From Methanobacteriota archaeon (GTDB lineage Archaea > Thermoplasmatota > Thermoplasmata > RBG-16-68-12), in contig VBML01000026.1 of NCBI GenBank assembly GCA_005878915.1, forward strand, positions 1-56,882: DNA of 56,882 nucleotides, written 5' to 3'. The position numbers and the translations under genes were made by a program. The notes beneath the pieces were generated by a model. It saw nothing but the letters and a program-made list of their open reading frames with translations. It did no database searches and had not been told where the DNA came from. This document shows positions 47,099-56,882 of the stretch, piece by piece; position 1 is the first letter of the stretch, and each line of letters opens with the position of its first letter.

Positions 47099-47818
47099 GT
47101 GGTTCGTCTCTACAAGACCTTCGTCCATGGGTTCGACGAGGAGATCGAAGGCGGGATTCCGCAGGGGCACGTCGTTCTTGTCGCGGGGCCCCCCGGGACC
47201 ATGAAGTCCTCCCTGGCGTACAGCATCCTGTACAACAACGCCCTCCATGACGGGACGTCCGGGGTCTACGTCACGATGGAACAGGACCGGGAGAGCCTGG
47301 AGTTCCAGATCACCCGCATGGGCATGGACCCGAAGAAGGTCGGGGACAAGGTGCGGATTCAGGACATCTCGCGGATCCGACGGGGGGTCGAGGAGCTGCG
47401 GGACACGTCACGGACCGGTTCTCCGGTCGAGAAACCGTGGCTCGACATCCTCAAGGGCCACCTCGAGGACGTCAAGGGGACGGGCGATTTCGCCCTCCTT
47501 GTCCTGGATTCCCTCCCGATCCTAGAAATCATCTCAGGGCTACGGGAGCGCCGGATCGGACTGTTCCACTTCTTTGGATGGTTGAAGGCACTCAAGGTCA
47601 CCACGTTCGTGATCTCGGAGGTCTCCCCGGACCCCAACATCGTTCGAGACGAAGACTTCCTTGCGGACGGGATCTTCGCGCTGACGATGGATCGCGTGGG
47701 GGAGCTGGATGTGTATCGGCGCATCCGGTGCGTGAAGATGCGCGGAGTGAACCACAATCCGGGGATTTTCACCCTGGAGGTCGAGGACGGCGCCTTCCGG
47801 GTCACGCGGGTGATCTAG
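47099..47818 (+). CDS. Single-domain KaiC/RecA-superfamily protein with non-canonical P-loop (GPPGTMKS)
   Basis: GFDEEIEGGIPQGHVVLVAGPPGTMKSSLAY, VYVTMEQ, LLVLDSL, RCVKMRGVNH. GTG start. Confidence 0.85.
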   Translation: MVRLYKTFVHGFDEEIEGGIPQGHVVLVAGPPGTMKSSLAYSILYNNALHDGTSGVYVTMEQDRESLEFQITRMGMDPKKVGDKVRIQDISRIRRGVEELRDTSRTGSPVEKPWLDILKGHLEDVKGTGDFALLVLDSLPILEIISGLRERRIGLFHFFGWLKALKVTTFVISEVSPDPNIVRDEDFLADGIFALTMDRVGELDVYRRIRCVKMRGVNHNPGIFTLEVEDGAFRVTRVI

Positions 47819-49020
47819 CTCGATTCCTGACGGAGCCTGAGGACTCGCAGGAGGGCCCGTTCTTCCGCGGAGAATCGCGCCTCGAGCCCTTCGAGGGAAT
47901 CCGCGGCGAGGAGCTTGATGCTCAGCGGGTTCCCCCGGGAGAGCCGGTAGATCTTCTCGAATTCCTCGTTTGGCATCCCCCTCGGGGCCAGCTTCCGGCA
48001 CTCCTGTTTCTCCAATCCCCCAATCGGCAGGACTTGCAACGCGATCGATTCCCGGAGGCGCGCGCCGTCGAGGAGCGGGGTTTCCGCGGTTAGGAGGAGC
48101 TTCCCCCCTCGCTTCCTCATGACTCCGATCAGCATCCGAGCCACCCCGTCGGGCGCGCGGTCCGCGTCGTCCAAGACGAGGAGCGCACGCGACGTCGGCC
48201 AGTCCCGCTCGAGAATTCCCTCCACCTCGTCGATGCGGGGGGCACGCTCCAGCAGGCGCGAGGAAAGGTCGCTGCGACCGACCGATGCGAGGAAGGCCCC
48301 CAGGGAACGCGTCATCCCCTCCAGCGGAGCCCCCTCCTTCGCGGTGTGCCAGAGCGTGTGTCGTTCCGGCTCGAGCGCCTCCAGGGCTTTCGACACGAGG
48401 GCGGTCTTTCCGATTCCCCGCGGGCCCACGACCAGGAGAGCGGGGGTCGTCGATGCGGCCCACTCGGCGATGGCCGCCAGCTCCGGCACGCGACCAAAGA
48501 AACTCTCGCCGGACGGTCGATCCTGTTCGTGGTGCGACATCGCGGCGCGTCCCCGCTCTGGCGTCACTCTCGCAAGGTCGAGGAGCCCCTCACGGTCCAC
48601 GTTCGAGAGGATCTCCGTCAGCGAGTACGGGCCGCCCGCGAGCTTGCGGGCCTCCCCCATGGCGAGGTCACGTACAGCTCCTCTCTCGTCCCGTACGGTC
48701 ACCATCGCCCGGTTCAGCTCCATGGCCAAGGCTTGTGCCGTCGAATGTCCCTCGGGGGTGATGAGGTAGACCTTCCTCTTCCGGACCTCACCCCGGACGC
48801 GCGCGGTGGACTCGGAGAGGCAGTTCTGCCCCTCGAGGGTCCTCATGGCGCGGGACACGTGGTTCACTCGAATCCGGAGGGCCCGCGCAATCCCCTCCTG
48901 CGTGAGCGGAAACGCGGCGTCTGCAATGTCCTTGTTCGCCGTGCGCTCGAAGAGGTGCAGCAGCGCGCGCTGATTGACGGTGAGCGTTCCCCGCCCGACG
49001 TGCTCCCCCAGACGAATCAT
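47815..49020 (-). CDS. Winged-helix + P-loop NTPase regulator (archaeal ATPase / STAND-like)
   Basis: N-terminal wHTH (LTQEGIARALRIRVNHVSRAMRTLEGQNCL...KVYLITPEG), Walker A VVGPRGIGKTAL, Walker B LLVLDDAD, and an LSRGNPLSIKLL motif as in STAND/LAL NTPases. ATG 49020 is preferred because the TATA box overlaps the first ATG (49047). Confidence 0.8.
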   Translation of the reverse strand: MIRLGEHVGRGTLTVNQRALLHLFERTANKDIADAAFPLTQEGIARALRIRVNHVSRAMRTLEGQNCLSESTARVRGEVRKRKVYLITPEGHSTAQALAMELNRAMVTVRDERGAVRDLAMGEARKLAGGPYSLTEILSNVDREGLLDLARVTPERGRAAMSHHEQDRPSGESFFGRVPELAAIAEWAASTTPALLVVGPRGIGKTALVSKALEALEPERHTLWHTAKEGAPLEGMTRSLGAFLASVGRSDLSSRLLERAPRIDEVEGILERDWPTSRALLVLDDADRAPDGVARMLIGVMRKRGGKLLLTAETPLLDGARLRESIALQVLPIGGLEKQECRKLAPRGMPNEEFEKIYRLSRGNPLSIKLLAADSLEGLEARFSAEERALLRVLRLRQESS

Positions 49021-49046
49021 CGCTAATCGACGATTTGACGGCGTCA

Positions 49047-49056
49047 TTAAAAAGGT
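49047..49056 (-). promoter_or_regulatory. TATA-like box for the wHTH-NTPase gene
   Basis: CCTTTTTAAT on the minus strand overlaps the first in-frame ATG (49047) and is centred about 31 nt upstream of the second ATG (49020). Confidence 0.45.
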
Positions 49057-49225: not shown

Positions 49226-52200
49226 TCAGGCTCGATTTGCGGCCCTGATTGCGTCCTGGGCGTGCTCCCACGCTTCTCCGAATTCCTCGATGGCCTCGGC
49301 GTATTCGAGCTGGCCCCACTCCTGATAGGCGTCCAGGAGCTCCTCTTCCGCCTCGGCGATCTCGTGCTGGACTTCCTGCGTGTTGTTCGGGTTGCGGATG
49401 GGCGTGTCCCGCGCGTCCCCCAGAGCCACGAGGGCGAGGAGCTCGTCCGCCTTCACGAGGAGGTTCGCGATCAGATCGCACTCCGAGGCAAGCGTCGCGC
49501 GCTCCGTCGCGGTCCACCTGCGCTCGTCAAGGTTGCATGACACGGGGCCCCCCTCCTCCTGGAGGAGCGCTTCGACCGCGTCCTCTTCCTCCTCGAACAC
49601 CTCCTCGCCTTCTTTCGGGTTGAGGTGGGTCGCGTCGATCCACCACGGCTCCATTTCATACCGGAACGAGAGGTGGGCGACCATGTCCGAACCGAGGAAC
49701 AGGGCGACCGGAAGGCTCACGTCATCGGCGTGGAACTTCAGTGTAACGCCCCGCTTCCCATGGCTGGAGGTCACATCGAACCGCTGGAGCCACGCGTCCA
49801 CGCGGAGCCGCCCCTCGAAGCTGAGGTCCTTGTTGGGCCACCCCCTCGGCAGGTCGATCATCGTGACCGCGTCGTTCGCCCACGCGAGCCGGAGGGTCCG
49901 GTAGGCGGGTAGCTTGGGAGTCCACGAGGGGCCCAGCAGGACGCGCACCTCGTTGTTGCCCCTCCGGGTCACGGTGACGTCGGGGCCGAGGGCGACCGTG
50001 ATCCCCACCGGCTCGAAAGGATCCTCGATCCCCAGGCTCTCCCATACTTCCTCCTCCGCCTTGTCGAGGTGCTCCAGGAACTCCTTGTCCCCGCGGGCCA
50101 TCGCGACGTACTTCAGTGCTTTGATCCGCTGAATCGCCTCGTGCTTCAGGTCCCCGGGGGACGCGATGTGGATGGGCAAGGAAGTCGTCGAGGAACCGCC
50201 ATCATCGTCGGACGCCCGAAGGCGAACGAGGTAGTCCCCGGGCGAATACGAGTGGCTCACTCGACTCGACGCGGCAACGGGGAACGTCCCGCCGGGGCTT
50301 GGGAAGGGGTCGGGGCCTGCACCGTCGTTGAACGTCGTCGAAGTGGCCGTAGCCGATCCGTCGCCGAAGTCCCAGAGGAAGGTCAGGTCGTCGCTGCCCG
50401 GGTCCGTCCCTGCGCCGGTGAAGTCGATCGGGATGAAGGGGAAAAGGTCGCTGGAGGGCAGGTGCCCCGGAACGGTCTGTGCAACGTTCTTGATCGTGGG
50501 CGTGGGCGCGACGTTCCGGACATCGACCGAGGTGACGTACCGCGCGGACCCGCCGTCGTCATCGGTGACGGTGAGGGTCACTGTGCAGGCGCAGTCGTCC
50601 CCATACGTGTGGCTCGAGGCATCGCTCGCCGTGAACGGATACGTCCCGCCAGGAGAGCCGGGGGGATCAGGGCCGATTCCGTTGTTGTAATACACGTGCA
50701 GGTCCGTCGGGCCGAAGTCCCATGACCAGGAAAACGCGAGATCATCGCTGCCAGGGTCCGTCGCGGTGGCGGTCAGGGTGACCTGCGTGCCCTCGGATAC
50801 CCCAACCTTCGCGGAATCCACAGAGACTGATGGGGGCAGGTTCCCCACCGAGAACGTTCCGGACAACGTCGTAACACCGCCGTCGTCGTCCTGGGCCTTG
50901 ACCGTCCACGCGAAGCCGCCGTTGTCGCCGCAGACGACGGTCTGTGTGTCTGTGATGTCCCTCGGGTGCACCTGGGGGCTCGGGTCCGGATCCGGCACCA
51001 CCGCGGGGTCATTCGGATAGAACACGAGGCTGGACCACCCGGAGCACGACCCGCTCCAGGACACCGTCAGGTCGTCGCTGCCCGGATCTTGGATGCGGGC
51101 CTCGAACGTGAGCGTGGCGCCCTCGTCTCCCGAGGGGATGGCGGTTAGTTCGATGGAGGGTGAGGCGTTGCTCACCGGGACCGTGAGATCCTGCAGGACG
51201 GAGCCTTCGTCGTCGTCGACGATCGCGATTGTGATGGGATAGGCGAAGTCGTCGCCGTACGTGTGGGTGATTGTGAACGTCCCCGTAGCGGCCGGGGGAT
51301 CGTGCGTGGACGTGAGGGTGACGGTCTCCAGGGCCCCGCCGCCCCAGTCGATGAACGCCGTGTGCGTGTCGAGCCATCCTGGGTCGGAGAACGTCACCGT
51401 GATCGTCGCAGGCGAGCCTTCCACCGCACCCGTGACGAAGAAAGAGTCGATTCGCGGCGGGGCGTTGCTGATTGTGTATCCCGCGCTCGTGGACGCGGTG
51501 AGCTCACCGTCAGAGACTTCGACGGTCACCGTCCCCACGAGGTTGTCCCCGAACGTGACCGGGGGAGAAATCGGCGAGGACATCCAGCCCGTGTCCCAGG
51601 TCCCGTCGCTCGTGAAGTCCCAACGGTACTGGAGGTCGTCCCCGTCGGGGTCCGTCGACCCGCTCGCGTCGAACTGTATCGGCGAGCCCTCCACTCCTGT
51701 GAAAGGACCCGTGATGACGGCGGTGGGTGCGCGGTTCACGCTGAAGACGTCCACGATGGGGATCTCCGAATGGGCGTCCACGGTTTCATCCGCATTCGTG
51801 TCGACCTCGGCGCGGGGGAGCTCGATCCGTCCCGCGTGGAGGCGCGGAGTCTGGAGCTGGTATCGCAGCTTGATCCCCTGGTACGGGGTCGGCGCGTTCA
51901 GGTCCTTCCCCGTGACATCCGCCGCGGGAAGGTCGACCGCCCACGTCACGGTCTTCGTTCCGTCGGAGTTCTGTGTCTCGCTCGTGGGTGTGACGGAGTA
52001 GCTGCCGGGCACGACGGACCAGCCCGCGGGAATCCGGTCGGACACGATGGCCCCATGGGCGTCCACGTCTGACCCGCTGTTGTCGCCCTTCACCGCGATG
52101 TTCGTTGCGGCGACCGTGACGGATATGATCTGCCCCGCTGTACTCGGAATCTCCTTCCACATCGGTGCCTTCCCGACGACGATTGTTGCGTGTTCGCTCA

Positions 52201-52789
52201 GGTAGTTCCAAACGTCGATCTGCGTGTTCTTCGTCTCGGAGTCAAAATATGGACTCGCGATGATATCTTGGAGGGCCGTGGGCAGGATTTCGCCGCCGAG
52301 GACGATGTCGACGCCCGCTTGGGTGTACTGGAAGTGCTCCGTGCACCACCATGGGGGCGGTGGGAGGAAGCCCTGGAGCCATTCATCCGCGTAGCTGTAT
52401 GTGACGGAGCTTCCGGGGGAGAGTGTGGCGGTGGTCAGGGCGCCGTCTTGGGTCGTCGGGTCACCAGGATCGACGGCGAACTGTGCCGGACTCGGGCTCA
52501 TCAGCATGGAGGGTTCATCGACGACGACGGAGGCCGGGGCGGATGGCGATACGGAGACACGGTAGCCGACCGGCAGCGTGACGGTGAAGCCGCCGCGGTC
52601 GTACGTGATGTCCACCTGGGTGACCGTGACCCAACCGCGCGCGTATCCCTCCCAGATCTTGATGGGCCCGCCGGAGGTCGGCGAGGGAGCGCCAAGCAGG
52701 AGGGAGCCCGCCGCAGAGGAAGCGAGCACTGCTGCAAGGACAACACAGGCGAAACCCCGGCCCATTCGTCCCCCTTCGACTGCATGCAT
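49226..52789 (-). CDS. Giant secreted protein with ~6 PKD-like domains and the shared helical C-terminal module
   Basis: 1187 aa. Signal peptide (FACVVLAAVLASSAAG). Repeated ..DPGSDDL...W.FGDG...Y...G.Y.V.L...DDDGG.. units. The C-terminal ~310 aa align with the end of 10463..13282. An alternative start, ATG 52765, is preceded by GGGGGA. Confidence 0.85.
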   Translation of the reverse strand: MHAVEGGRMGRGFACVVLAAVLASSAAGSLLLGAPSPTSGGPIKIWEGYARGWVTVTQVDITYDRGGFTVTLPVGYRVSVSPSAPASVVVDEPSMLMSPSPAQFAVDPGDPTTQDGALTTATLSPGSSVTYSYADEWLQGFLPPPPWWCTEHFQYTQAGVDIVLGGEILPTALQDIIASPYFDSETKNTQIDVWNYLSEHATIVVGKAPMWKEIPSTAGQIISVTVAATNIAVKGDNSGSDVDAHGAIVSDRIPAGWSVVPGSYSVTPTSETQNSDGTKTVTWAVDLPAADVTGKDLNAPTPYQGIKLRYQLQTPRLHAGRIELPRAEVDTNADETVDAHSEIPIVDVFSVNRAPTAVITGPFTGVEGSPIQFDASGSTDPDGDDLQYRWDFTSDGTWDTGWMSSPISPPVTFGDNLVGTVTVEVSDGELTASTSAGYTISNAPPRIDSFFVTGAVEGSPATITVTFSDPGWLDTHTAFIDWGGGALETVTLTSTHDPPAATGTFTITHTYGDDFAYPITIAIVDDDEGSVLQDLTVPVSNASPSIELTAIPSGDEGATLTFEARIQDPGSDDLTVSWSGSCSGWSSLVFYPNDPAVVPDPDPSPQVHPRDITDTQTVVCGDNGGFAWTVKAQDDDGGVTTLSGTFSVGNLPPSVSVDSAKVGVSEGTQVTLTATATDPGSDDLAFSWSWDFGPTDLHVYYNNGIGPDPPGSPGGTYPFTASDASSHTYGDDCACTVTLTVTDDDGGSARYVTSVDVRNVAPTPTIKNVAQTVPGHLPSSDLFPFIPIDFTGAGTDPGSDDLTFLWDFGDGSATATSTTFNDGAGPDPFPSPGGTFPVAASSRVSHSYSPGDYLVRLRASDDDGGSSTTSLPIHIASPGDLKHEAIQRIKALKYVAMARGDKEFLEHLDKAEEEVWESLGIEDPFEPVGITVALGPDVTVTRRGNNEVRVLLGPSWTPKLPAYRTLRLAWANDAVTMIDLPRGWPNKDLSFEGRLRVDAWLQRFDVTSSHGKRGVTLKFHADDVSLPVALFLGSDMVAHLSFRYEMEPWWIDATHLNPKEGEEVFEEEEDAVEALLQEEGGPVSCNLDERRWTATERATLASECDLIANLLVKADELLALVALGDARDTPIRNPNNTQEVQHEIAEAEEELLDAYQEWGQLEYAEAIEEFGEAWEHAQDAIRAANRA

Positions 52790-52846
52790 ATTGATAGGGG
52801 GGCTTTAAAAGCCTTGGGGTTGGAGCAACTCCTACGCGCCGATTTT

Positions 52847-53992
52847 CTAGGAGCGACCACGCCGCCGCCGGGCGTCAACCTGCCGTTCTTTCTCCTTGAG
52901 AACCTGGTTCTCGAGGATCTCCATCAAGCCGCCCATGGCCTCGACCAAGTCCCAATCGAAGTGTTTCACATAGTACATGCCATGCGCCGTCGTGAATCGG
53001 GCGTGAAGGGATTGTTTCTGCCGATCCCCCTCTCCCTTGTACGTCTGCACGTGGACCGAGAGGGTTCGCGGGGTCACGATGTTCGCGAGCTTCTTCATCG
53101 ACTTTCGGATGACATCGTACAGCGCCTCGTAGACCTCCGACTGCTCCTCGAGCCCGCTGATTTGGACGAGGAGCTCCTCTCGTTCCCGGAGGCCCGCGAG
53201 GAGCTCGGCGAGGTCGAGCTTCGTCAAGATCCCGATGGGCTCCCCCCGCTCCACGACGATCACGCTGGAGATGTCGTGCTTCACCATCAGCCGGGCGGAC
53301 TCCGCAACCGTCGCATTCGGTCCGACGGTGACGACGGGGTATCGCATCGCGCCCTTCAGCTGCAGGGCGGAACGGGTCTTCTCGCCCGACACCTCACCCG
53401 CGTGCGCACCCCTCTTTGGCTGGGCGAACGCGTCCTGCAGATCTCGCACCCCGACAACCCCGATCAGGCGTCCGTTACGATCGAGGACCGGCAGCGACCG
53501 CTCCCCCAACCCTTGCATGGTGCGGATTGCATGCTCCACGGAGTCCTCTTCGGAAACCGTCTGCGGCGACGGCGTCATGACGTCTCGGACCTTCACGTCG
53601 GCGAACTCGTCGACGTCTGCGATCGCCCTCGTGAGGTCTGTTCGGCTCACGATCCCGACGAGCTTCTTTCGCTCGAGCACGGGGAATGCGCGGAAGCCGC
53701 CCTGGATCATTTTCTCCGCCGCCGTTGGCAGGTCATCGTCCGGGGTCACTTCCGGGACCGATTGCAAGAGGGTGGCGACGCTCGTCGTCGGCGGGAGGCC
53801 CCGCCGCCGCATGATGCCGGACAGCGTTACGAGGCCCTCGACGGTCTTCCCTCGGACGACAGGGAGCTCGTGGACCCCGTGCTTCTTCATCTTCCCGAGG
53901 GCCTCCCCCACGGTATCGTCGGGCCCCACGGTCACCGGCTCCTTCGACATCACGTCCCGGACCTGGAGGTCCTGAAGTTTGGAACGGCGCAT
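52847..53992 (-). CDS. Four-CBS-domain protein with C-terminal HPF/RaiA-like domain
   Basis: ATG 53992 gives MRRSKLQDLQVRDVM... Four CBS units (VRDVMSKEPVTV.., TLLQSVPEVTP.., VRDVMTPSPQTV.., AMRYPVVTVGP..). A ~100-aa tail has a beta-alpha-beta-beta-beta-alpha pattern (LLVQISGLEEQSEVYEALYDVIRKSMKKL...LSVHVQTYKG...SLHARFTT..GMYYVKHFDWDLVEAMGGLMEILENQVLKEKER). Confidence 0.8.
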   Translation of the reverse strand: MRRSKLQDLQVRDVMSKEPVTVGPDDTVGEALGKMKKHGVHELPVVRGKTVEGLVTLSGIMRRRGLPPTTSVATLLQSVPEVTPDDDLPTAAEKMIQGGFRAFPVLERKKLVGIVSRTDLTRAIADVDEFADVKVRDVMTPSPQTVSEEDSVEHAIRTMQGLGERSLPVLDRNGRLIGVVGVRDLQDAFAQPKRGAHAGEVSGEKTRSALQLKGAMRYPVVTVGPNATVAESARLMVKHDISSVIVVERGEPIGILTKLDLAELLAGLREREELLVQISGLEEQSEVYEALYDVIRKSMKKLANIVTPRTLSVHVQTYKGEGDRQKQSLHARFTTAHGMYYVKHFDWDLVEAMGGLMEILENQVLKEKERQVDARRRRGRS

Positions 53993-54032
53993 GCGGGAGC
54001 ACCCTTGGGGGGCACGTGGCAAGCTCCGAACA

Positions 54033-54042
54033 CTATTTAATG
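54033..54042. promoter_or_regulatory. Shared TATA-like box between the divergent CBS-HPF-like gene and acyP
   Basis: CTATTTAATG is the only AT-rich element in the 75-nt divergent spacer. It lies about 30 nt from the acyP ATG and about 45 nt from the CBS gene ATG. Confidence 0.5.
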
Positions 54043-54067
54043 TTCCTTCCCGCCTCGCGCCTCGCCG

Positions 54068-56061: not shown

Positions 56062-56610
56062 TCAGCGGAGGAGTCCGGCGGCCTTCAGCTCCTGCGTGAT
56101 CTTCTCCACGGCTTCCTCGACGTCGGAGGGCTTCCGCGCCCCCGTGCAGACGAGCTTCCCGCTGCCGAAGAGGAGGACGACGACCTTCGGGACGTCGATC
56201 CGATACACGAGGCCAGGGAACTGCTCCGGCTCGTACTCGACCTTCTCGAGGCCGAGGGAGATCGCGATCGCGTTCAGGTTGATCTCCGTGCCGAGGTCGG
56301 AGGAGGCAACGATGTTCTGGACCTCGATCACCGGGTTCTTCTTGATTGGAATCCCCGCCGCCTCGATCTGTTTCGCGACCAGGTCGATGGCCGTCTTGAC
56401 GTGCTCGAGGCTCTTCGCGCCCGTGCAGACGACCTTGCCGCTGCGGAACAGGAGGGTCGCTGTCTTTGGCTCTTTCAGCCGGTAGATGAGGCCGGGGAAC
56501 TGCTCCGGCTCGTACTCGGCGCCGCCGAGGGCGAGCGCAATCGCTTGCAGGTCGAGTTCCCCGCCCAGGGAGGTCGAGGCGACGACGTTCTCTATCTTGA
56601 TTTTGGCCAT
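56062..56610 (-). CDS. tbp: TATA-box binding protein
   Basis: ATG 56610 gives MAKIKIENVVASTSLGGELDL..., two direct repeats (EYEPEQFPGLIYR.., EYEPEQFPGLVYR..; LLFRSGKVVCTGAKS / LLFGSGKLVCTGARK). 182 aa. The upstream part of ORF 56062..56874 is non-coding. Confidence 0.95.
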   Translation of the reverse strand: MAKIKIENVVASTSLGGELDLQAIALALGGAEYEPEQFPGLIYRLKEPKTATLLFRSGKVVCTGAKSLEHVKTAIDLVAKQIEAAGIPIKKNPVIEVQNIVASSDLGTEINLNAIAISLGLEKVEYEPEQFPGLVYRIDVPKVVVLLFGSGKLVCTGARKPSDVEEAVEKITQELKAAGLLR

Positions 56611-56675
56611 AGGAACAACCACCGCGGTCCTGCGGAGGCCCGAGCGTTCTCCCCAGCCCCCGGGGGAGCGTCCCA

Positions 56676-56696
56676 ATTTAAATACCCATTTAAATA
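56676..56696 (-). promoter_or_regulatory. Tandem TATA-like boxes upstream of tbp
   Basis: ATTTAAATA occurs twice, 12 nt apart (56676-56684 and 56688-56696), in otherwise GC-rich DNA, 66-86 nt upstream of the tbp ATG. Confidence 0.5.
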
Positions 56697-56882
56697 GGTA
56701 TCGACCCCGCCCCGTCACGAGCGGGCGGACGCCTCCCCCGCTGGTCAAGAATCCGACCGGCTCCGGCGATCTCCAGCGCAGCCTACCGGCACCCCACCGT
56801 GGACCCCCGGTGCCTCTGCGGTACCACGCTCCTCCTCCACCGGGCATGGTGCGATCCGCGGCTTCGCGGTGCACCGCGTCTT

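Follow-up and report, generated by a model that had tools for sequence, protein, structure and literature searches.

Contig VBML01000026.1 of assembly GCA_005878915.1 (56,882 nt, analysed over its whole length and called the window below) carries a reverse-strand gene for a protein of 381 amino acids (aa), in which four CBS domains are followed by a C-terminal domain with the HPF/RaiA fold. Judged from sequence and predicted structure, the gene very probably encodes an orthologue of HibA, a ribosome hibernation factor of archaea that also goes by the names Hib and AHA. All of the family's defining features that are open to an in silico test are found in the window protein. Its source is an uncultured soil Thermoplasmata-like archaeon. 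The gene and its parts are as follows.

52847-53992, reverse strand: hibA/AHA-family gene (ATG at 53992-53990, TAG at 52849-52847; 381 aa plus stop)
53183-53992, reverse strand: N-terminal CBS tetrad (two Bateman modules), residues 1-270; four Pfam CBS matches
53366-53425, reverse strand: long CBS3-CBS4 loop, residues 190-209, AQPKRGAHAGEVSGEKTRSA; counterpart of the 'PTC loop' (peptidyl-transferase centre loop) of HibA and 'loop 3' of AHA
52850-53179, reverse strand: HPF/RaiA-fold domain, residues 272-381; from PF02482, AlphaFold2 (AF2) with Foldseek, and profile search
52850-52897, reverse strand: basic C-terminal tail, residues 366-381, KEKERQVDARRRRGRS; 8 K/R in 16 residues, isoelectric point (pI) 11.7

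The C-terminal domain has the HPF/RaiA fold

A full-length AF2 model was made from a 34-sequence alignment (mean predicted local distance difference test, pLDDT, 79.4). Secondary structure assignment with DSSP gives the C-terminal domain strands (E) and helices (H) at E275-279, H285-302, E308-319, E325-335, E339-346 and H349-380, the order (strand, helix, three strands, helix) of HPF/YfiA. A Foldseek search with the full-length model returned CBS tetrads only (fold library to 2026-04-08, without HibA entries), and the tail was therefore modelled separately. Modelled alone (pLDDT 84.7), it keeps the same order of secondary structure elements, and its best 36 Foldseek matches in the PDB are all HPF, RaiA, YfiA, protein Y, plastid pY or RafH, mostly from ribosome-bound structures. 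The best match is 5mmj_y (E 5.3e-8, template modelling (TM) score 0.71), and E. coli HPF (6h4n_x) superposes with TM scores of 0.71/0.81. Unrelated folds, such as LptE (E 5.9e-3) and double-stranded RNA-binding domains, rank only after the HPF family, with TM scores of about 0.44.

The sequence of the tail is placed in the same family. Pfam Ribosomal_S30AE (PF02482) matches the isolated tail with 25.2 bits (E 2.8e-5; gathering score 23.7), and 33 of 42 diverse family tails match it individually. These 42 tails, with 25-53% identity, were drawn from a search of cluster representatives and were used to build a broad tail profile. Against PDB sequences, the profile finds HibA of Pyrococcus abyssi (residues 275-380, E 1.4e-8), Psychrobacter RaiA (E 4.3e-5), E. 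coli HPF (E 3e-4) and 9l96_a (E 8.5e-4), plus about 20 further HPF/YfiA chains, with bacterial RaiA/HPF ranging from 4e-5 to 1e-2. Nothing unrelated was found in PDB sequences below E 0.5. In the profile alignment of the last helix, the family consensus 'vdWdllkavdellekLekevikkkek' lies over 'GqDmYaAIDgLIDKLarQLtKhKdK' of E. coli HPF (4v8h_AX). Three residues of the basic tail (K366, K368 and R370) are the same in all 34 homologues.

The initial annotation, made by a model from the letters and their open reading frame (ORF) translations, had proposed four CBS units followed by a domain with the HPF/YfiA order of strands and helices, an HPF-like final helix and a basic tail. Each of these is borne out by the results given here and in the next section, and the register that it proposed for the final helix is the register of the profile alignment. 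The comparison that it had suggested, of the tail with HPF/RaiA/S30AE profiles and structures, came out positive in Pfam, Foldseek and the 42-tail profile alike.

Membership of the bacterial yfiA equivalog was rejected: NCBIfam TIGR00741 (yfiA) scores 18.7 bits, below its cut-off of 40.9, and the architecture differs, with the domain itself homologous. The HPF domain of HibA carries two archaeal-specific insertions relative to most bacterial HPF/RaiA (beta13-alpha11 and beta14-beta15), and their deletion left the in vitro activity of HibA unchanged (PMC13324472), which makes the insertions a weak criterion of membership. In the window protein, the PF02482 match takes up 88 residues for 81 profile positions, i.e. 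about seven extra residues; alignment with T. thermophilus protein Y and with P. urativorans RaiA is nearly free of gaps.

CBS tetrad and the CBS3-CBS4 loop

Pfam PF00571 matches the window protein in four stretches (E 1.6e-57). The units are CBS1 (about residues 10-62), CBS2 (about 72-127), CBS3 (135-189) and CBS4 (213-266), with their G-h-h-[STG]-x-x-[DG] motifs at residues 53, 113, 178 and 254. The AF2 model shows four beta-alpha repeats in this part (pLDDT mostly 83-93), and the best Foldseek matches of the tetrad, on which it superposes, are those of SriA/B/D, Dri, MJ1225 and AMPK-gamma (E 1e-22 to 1e-16). A ribose-binding-type Asp is found in the motifs of CBS2, CBS3 and CBS4 (D119, D184 and D260), and all three are invariant in 34 sequences. 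The nucleotide-site motifs G-h-h-x-x-x-D of CBS3 (GVVGVRD) and CBS4 (GILTKLD) are invariant in the clade. By analogy with the characterised orthologues, the CBS3/CBS4 cleft would most likely be a site for adenine nucleotides, with adenosine monophosphate (AMP) preferred.

The CBS3-CBS4 loop aligns with residues 186-207 of P. abyssi HibA (IKPRFKAQYGELAGEKIPPFS), and G-E-x-x-G-E-K is common to both. The loop glycines G199 and G203 occur in 90% or more of the clade sequences. Residues 190-209 are disordered in the AF2 model (pLDDT <50), as would be expected of a loop that becomes ordered on the ribosome only.

Membership of the HibA/AHA family

Among all PDB sequences the best match of the window protein is 9sr9_H, the 392-aa HibA of P. 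abyssi, deposited under the name 'Dehydrogenase'. The alignment runs through both parts of the protein (residues 9-376 against 4-380, E 1.3e-33), and in BLASTP the two are 27% identical over 380 columns (E 3e-35). The CBS modules of HibA form a monophyletic clade (HibA-CM), sister to CM-5 and distinct from CM-1, CM-2, CM-3, CM-4 and CM-6. That the CBS module of the window protein may fall in this clade is supported indirectly, as HibA scores 120 bits in this comparison, versus 43-78 bits for the tetrads of Sri, Dri and the PH1780/HhpR type. The second-best PDB match, 9l96_a, is an acidic, apparently haloarchaeal protein of 406 aa that aligns in the CBS part and in the tail (E 5e-23). Chain a of 9l96, 9l98, 9l9c and 9l9v is deposited as 'CBS domain-containing protein' in these four PDB entries and has the architecture of a CBS tetrad plus HPF domain; a search of a literature library found no paper for PDB 9L96/9L98/9L9C/9L9V.

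The search that supplied the 42 tails, made with an initial tail profile, covered 1.84 billion cluster representatives and gave 434 matches. In most of these, 355-410 aa long, the domain is C-terminal, and some others are stand-alone domains of 90-130 aa. This spread of lengths and architectures agrees with the family description in the HibA paper.

Several observations weigh against the assignment. Identity to characterised HibA is only 27%. On the full-length protein, PF02482 (residues 284-371) scores 21.7 bits, which is under the gathering score of 23.7. A single-sequence phmmer search of the tail against PDB sequences found no significant HibA or HPF (best E 0.27), with T. thermophilus protein Y at a non-significant E of 0.67. 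A narrow tail profile built from 15 close relatives likewise found no HPF or HibA in the PDB, which is why the broader 42-tail profile was needed; its match to the VPS4 MIT domain (23 residues, E 0.055) was dismissed as spurious. Within the tetrad, the CBS1 motif has Gly in place of the ribose-binding Asp, and four functional nucleotide sites are thus unlikely. Given the low identity and the null search with the single tail, function is transferred by family membership and not by close orthology. The ribosome binding, binding sites and physiological role that are proposed below for the window protein and its organism would rest on experiments with the orthologues.

Alternative readings of the gene

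The mechanical ORF at this position is longer upstream (497 aa) and overlaps the divergent acylphosphatase gene, and the window, at 65% GC, is rich in spurious ORFs. The gene might then be mis-delimited or a pseudogene, with GC-rich DNA holding open a long frame that mimics a fusion. The chance of this is regarded as negligible, and the alignment of homologues rules it out. In 33 homologues of 381-393 aa the start is always M-[KRP]-R-x-K-x-Q-D-L in the same column, and the identical 381-aa product has been called by independent gene callers on eight independent public soil-metagenome contigs. Thus, the ATG at 53992 is the real start. The 381-aa frame is free of interruptions, it starts and ends where more than 100 homologues (381-388 aa) do, and the domain junction is conserved across the family. 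GC content at third codon positions is 0.85 (64.5% GC over the whole gene), which is typical for a real coding frame of this genome. No second CBS/HPF paralogue was found in the window with a profile built from the family.

A different possibility is a role away from the ribosome: the protein would be a regulator built on a CBS tetrad, for example a transcription factor like HhpR or a sensor subunit like AMPK-gamma, and the resemblance of its tail to HPF would be superficial, as could be the case for an alpha/beta fold of the double-stranded RNA-binding type. HhpR is the best NCBIfam match, the tetrad superposes on AMPK-gamma and MJ1225, and double-stranded RNA-binding folds do occur among the Foldseek matches of the tail. 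However, HhpR, a CM-3 tetrad transcription factor of about 280 aa, is rejected as an identity: its model NF053603 scores 78 bits against a cut-off of 520 and matches in the CBS part only, and the window protein has an additional HPF domain of 110 aa. The double-stranded RNA-binding domains reach only E >8e-3 and TM about 0.44, versus E 5e-8 and TM about 0.7 for HPF. The tail profile ties the sequence specifically to HibA and HPF/RaiA, and the full-length alignment with HibA takes in the tail. A non-ribosomal regulator is accordingly considered very unlikely, and membership of the HibA/AHA family is retained. Sri and Dri were also considered as identities and were rejected, as they are without an HPF domain.

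Published orthologues and related factors

HibA was described by Madru et al. (bioRxiv, October 2025; Nat Commun, April 2026; PMC13324472; PDB 9SR9-9SRF and 9T7H), for the proteins PAB0961 of P. abyssi and TERMP_00697 of Thermococcus barophilus. 9SR9 and seven sister entries are P. abyssi 70S-HibA complexes, and the family occurs in about 47% of archaeal genomes, its members being 'typically annotated as CBS domain-containing proteins' (PMC13324472). In cryo-electron microscopy (cryo-EM), the C-terminal domain lies within the 30S mRNA/tRNA channel, and the CBS module is found in three places of the 50S subunit, namely the PTC, uL5 and the L1 stalk, with loop 190-207 wrapping a universally conserved PTC adenine (PMC13324472). 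HibA blocks translation in extracts, and deletion of T. barophilus hibA lowers stationary-phase 70S by about 60% and doubles the regrowth lag (PMC13324472). Its CBS module binds AMP, ADP and ATP with dissociation constants (Kd) of 12 uM, 65 uM and 113 uM, respectively, at the CBS3/CBS4 interface (PMC13324472).

AHA is the Haloferax volcanii orthologue (HVO_2384; Souza et al., bioRxiv, February 2026; PMC12934967), and AHA and HibA are one family with two names. AHA binds the ribosome with two domains, as HibA does, and holds two AMP at CBS3/CBS4 in cryo-EM (PMC12934967). Its knockout loses ribosomal proteins and viability in stationary phase (PMC12934967).

The window protein has in common with HibA the length (381 versus 392 aa) and the architecture, with the CBS tetrad, the long CBS3-CBS4 loop with G-E-x-x-G-E-K, the HPF/RaiA C-terminal domain with its long last helix, and the basic tail. 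It is collinear with P. abyssi HibA end to end. It differs in that its tail is richer in Arg and identity is at the low level given above, and its source is a mesophilic soil Thermoplasmata-like archaeon, whereas HibA comes from hyperthermophilic Thermococcales. AHA, compared by its description, likewise has four CBS motifs and a C-terminal HPF domain; in AHA, loop 3 of CBS3 enters the PTC and AMP sits at the CBS3/CBS4 junction. The haloarchaeal proteins are acidic and have a longer loop, in contrast to the window protein with its pI of 8.9.

Bacterial and plastid HPF, RaiA, YfiA, pY and long HPF (PF02482, COG1544) occupy the same 30S decoding-region site as the HibA/AHA orthologues, but are without a CBS module. 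The last helix of the archaeal HPF domain is longer than the bacterial one, with more ribosomal-protein contacts according to the HibA paper. Long HPF has a C-terminal dimerisation domain and gives 100S particles, whereas the window protein would hold 70S monomers together and not form 100S dimers. Dri of Thermoproteota and SriA-D/ARC-A/P of Methanosarcinales have homologous CBS tetrads (Foldseek E 1e-22 to 1e-15) with a long CBS3-CBS4 loop, and also bind the tRNA sites of idle ribosomes. They differ in being without an HPF/RaiA domain: Dri has two CBS tetrads, and the Sri/ARC proteins work in pairs of stand-alone tetrads. On the PTC, the tetrad of Dri is oriented the opposite way. The Dri/Sri families and HibA tend toward mutual exclusion across genomes (PMC13324472).

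Predicted mechanism and nucleotide gating

By analogy with the orthologues, the HPF/RaiA domain (residues 272-381) would sit at the decoding centre, inside the small subunit's mRNA/tRNA channel, overlapping the positions of A- and P-site tRNA and mRNA, with the long basic last helix and the tail directed toward the mRNA exit side. The tethered CBS tetrad (residues 1-270) would fill the vacant tRNA sites of the large subunit, where the CBS3-CBS4 loop (residues 190-209) could enter the PTC. Bridging of the subunits in this way would keep the idle 70S intact, stop translation and shield functional rRNA sites from degradation in stationary phase or under stress, until the window protein is displaced by returning tRNA and mRNA.

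Gating of ribosome binding in the HibA/AHA family by the AMP/ATP ratio is a possibility that is held tentatively. In a more specific form, CBS3/CBS4 would be an energy-charge switch in which AMP makes binding to the 70S tighter and exposes the PTC loop or stabilises it, and ATP causes release; this is viewed as rather doubtful. AMP-dependent gating through the loop has been proposed only, in the AHA preprint (PMC12934967). It is set against the observation, which counts against gating in the window protein too, that AMP and ATP are without clear effect on ribosome binding by HibA or on the distribution of its conformations (PMC13324472). A family factor that is not gated by adenine nucleotides, and whose binding to any vacant ribosome follows mass action with tRNA and mRNA as competitors, is a serious alternative for this step, put at somewhat short of an even chance. 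The nucleotide in the CBS module would then be structural or serve another partner, e.g. a sequestering protein. In its favour, 5 mM AMP or ATP left the conformational landscape of reconstituted P. abyssi 70S:HibA largely unchanged, native P. abyssi complexes are without bound nucleotide, and the HibA authors offer regulation of a sequestering partner as their alternative (PMC13324472). AHA is present at equal levels in exponential and stationary phase (PMC12934967), a further point on this side, from which it also follows that some post-translational control is needed. Conversely, AHA on native ribosomes holds its two AMP at CBS3/CBS4, adjoining the PTC loop (PMC12934967). ATP is reported to release the related stand-alone CBS factors ARC-A/P, and the Asp residues of the nucleotide sites are invariant in the clade of the window protein. 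If gating is true, every HibA/AHA, that of the window included, would be a direct AMPK-gamma-like energy sensor on the ribosome.

Putative promoter region

Two putative signals lie upstream of hibA.

54034-54048, reverse strand: putative archaeal promoter, with an A-rich stretch resembling a transcription factor B recognition element (BRE) and the TATA-like box TTAAATA, 42-48 nt upstream of the hibA ATG
54000-54004, reverse strand: Shine-Dalgarno-like GGGTG at -12 to -8; of four loci aligned, three have GGGT and L085 has GGCT

Within the 75 bp that separate hibA from the acylphosphatase gene (53993-54067), the only AT-rich element is GGAACATTAAATA (54034-54046). The TATA-like box and the A-rich stretch preceding it recur at unchanged spacing in four loci. 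One of these, L088, is without the divergent acylphosphatase gene; that the element is kept there argues that it serves hibA, and it would act as the hibA promoter. GGGTG may be a Shine-Dalgarno sequence, a weak candidate in a window without a 16S rRNA for comparison with the anti-Shine-Dalgarno.

The element at 54031-54048, GGAACATTAAATAGTGTTC, is an imperfect palindrome (GAACA-N7-TGTTC) around the TATA-like box. The arms of the palindrome are kept in the closest relatives only, and the TATA/BRE part in the four loci. The box lies 26 nt from the ATG of the acylphosphatase gene and 42 nt from that of hibA, and the 26-nt spacing fits a leaderless acylphosphatase transcript. The element may be an operator site, or a promoter that works in both directions, and hibA and the divergent acylphosphatase gene may, in this lineage specifically, share a bidirectional TATA element (54034-54040) and be co-regulated. 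Regulation by Phr, reported for Thermococcales, is not to be assumed for the window gene. What is taken here to be the Phr consensus does not fit the hibA promoter, and no claim of a Phr-type operator is made.

Genomic neighbourhood and organism

The genes around hibA that are referred to here are the following.

56062-56874, reverse strand: TATA-binding protein (TBP) ORF, mechanically 270 aa
55358-56056, forward strand: KaiC/RadA-like single-domain ATPase (PF06745), 232 aa
54068-54343, forward strand: acylphosphatase (PF00708, E 6e-25), divergent from hibA
49226-52789, reverse strand: large PKD-repeat protein (PF18911/PF00801), downstream of hibA
47815-49047, reverse strand: helix-turn-helix (HTH) plus AAA_16/STAND-like ATPase
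47099-47818, forward strand: KaiC/RadA-like single-domain ATPase (PF06745), 239 aa
44449-47049, forward strand: NosD/beta-helix/DUF835 protein, 866 aa

hibA stands alone. Relatives with protein identity of about 65% or more retain the gene order TBP-KaiC-TatD-acylphosphatase-hibA-PKD, with KaiC already gone in a locus at 65% (L089). At 53% identity the order is partly lost (the acylphosphatase is gone), and at 34% nothing is common. This pattern is read as lineage synteny, and a functional gene cluster or operon around hibA, conservation of which would be limited to relatives with at least 65% identity, was rejected.

The likely start of the TBP gene is internal, at MAKIKIENVV..., giving about 182 aa as on the syntenic contig L084, and the upstream 88 codons of the ORF are probably non-coding. 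The PKD-repeat protein is probably secreted or on the surface. On the contigs with an identical hibA, gene callers place its start eight codons later (ATG at 52765, 1179 aa), and a TATA-like TTTTAAAG is found upstream of it at 52803-52810. In strains and close relatives it is between 946 and 1179 aa long, and it thus looks like a rapidly changing surface protein. The two KaiC/RadA-like genes lie within 9 kb of each other. That at 47099-47818 adjoins the HTH plus AAA_16/STAND-like ATPase gene on one side and the NosD/beta-helix/DUF835 gene on the other. Relatives at 68% identity have kept this block.

The archaeal host named in the initial annotation is confirmed by the TBP gene, which is found within the window and on syntenic contigs, and by the closest named homologues of the window protein, which are from metagenome-assembled genomes of 'Euryarchaeota archaeon RBG_16_68_13' and 'Thermoplasmata archaeon'. 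The exact window protein is present in soil metagenomes. A scan of contigs with back-translated peptides gave one archaeal orthologue (L001, 34% identity) and 79 irrelevant CBS-protein loci, almost all of them from bacteria of the sulfate-reducing Deltaproteobacteria type and uninformative on taxonomy. No tRNA genes, and no Rfam families at the gathering threshold, were found in the 57-kb window. Its GC content is even (61-67%), with no obvious island.

Significance

The architecture, mechanism, distribution and evolution of the family have been published from October 2025 onward, and the window gene is of an already known kind. The initial annotation had left open whether this architecture was among the archaeal hibernation factors described so far; it is, as HibA/AHA, and the implied novelty is gone. 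Its suggestion of an archaeal ribosome-silencing factor that combines a CBS adenine-nucleotide module with an HPF/RaiA domain has experimental backing in the orthologues HibA and AHA, whereas the energy-charge gating that it added is still a hypothesis. Recognition of the architecture correctly from raw sequence is a positive control for this kind of reading.

Precomputed Pfam tables list CBS only for the window protein and nearly all of its 120 best homologues. In most public sources the label is limited to 'CBS domain-containing protein', because the full-length S30AE score falls 2 bits under the Pfam threshold. Some JGI records already read 'CBS domain-containing protein/ribosome-associated translation inhibitor RaiA'. 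The window protein and hundreds of relatives deserve the name HibA/AHA ribosome hibernation factor. The window locus adds one orthologue, from a soil Thermoplasmata-like lineage, and its value lies mainly in annotation. For the family as a whole, the HPF/RaiA hibernation domain is common to bacteria and archaea, and in HibA/AHA ribosome silencing is coupled to an AMPK-gamma-like nucleotide-sensing module.

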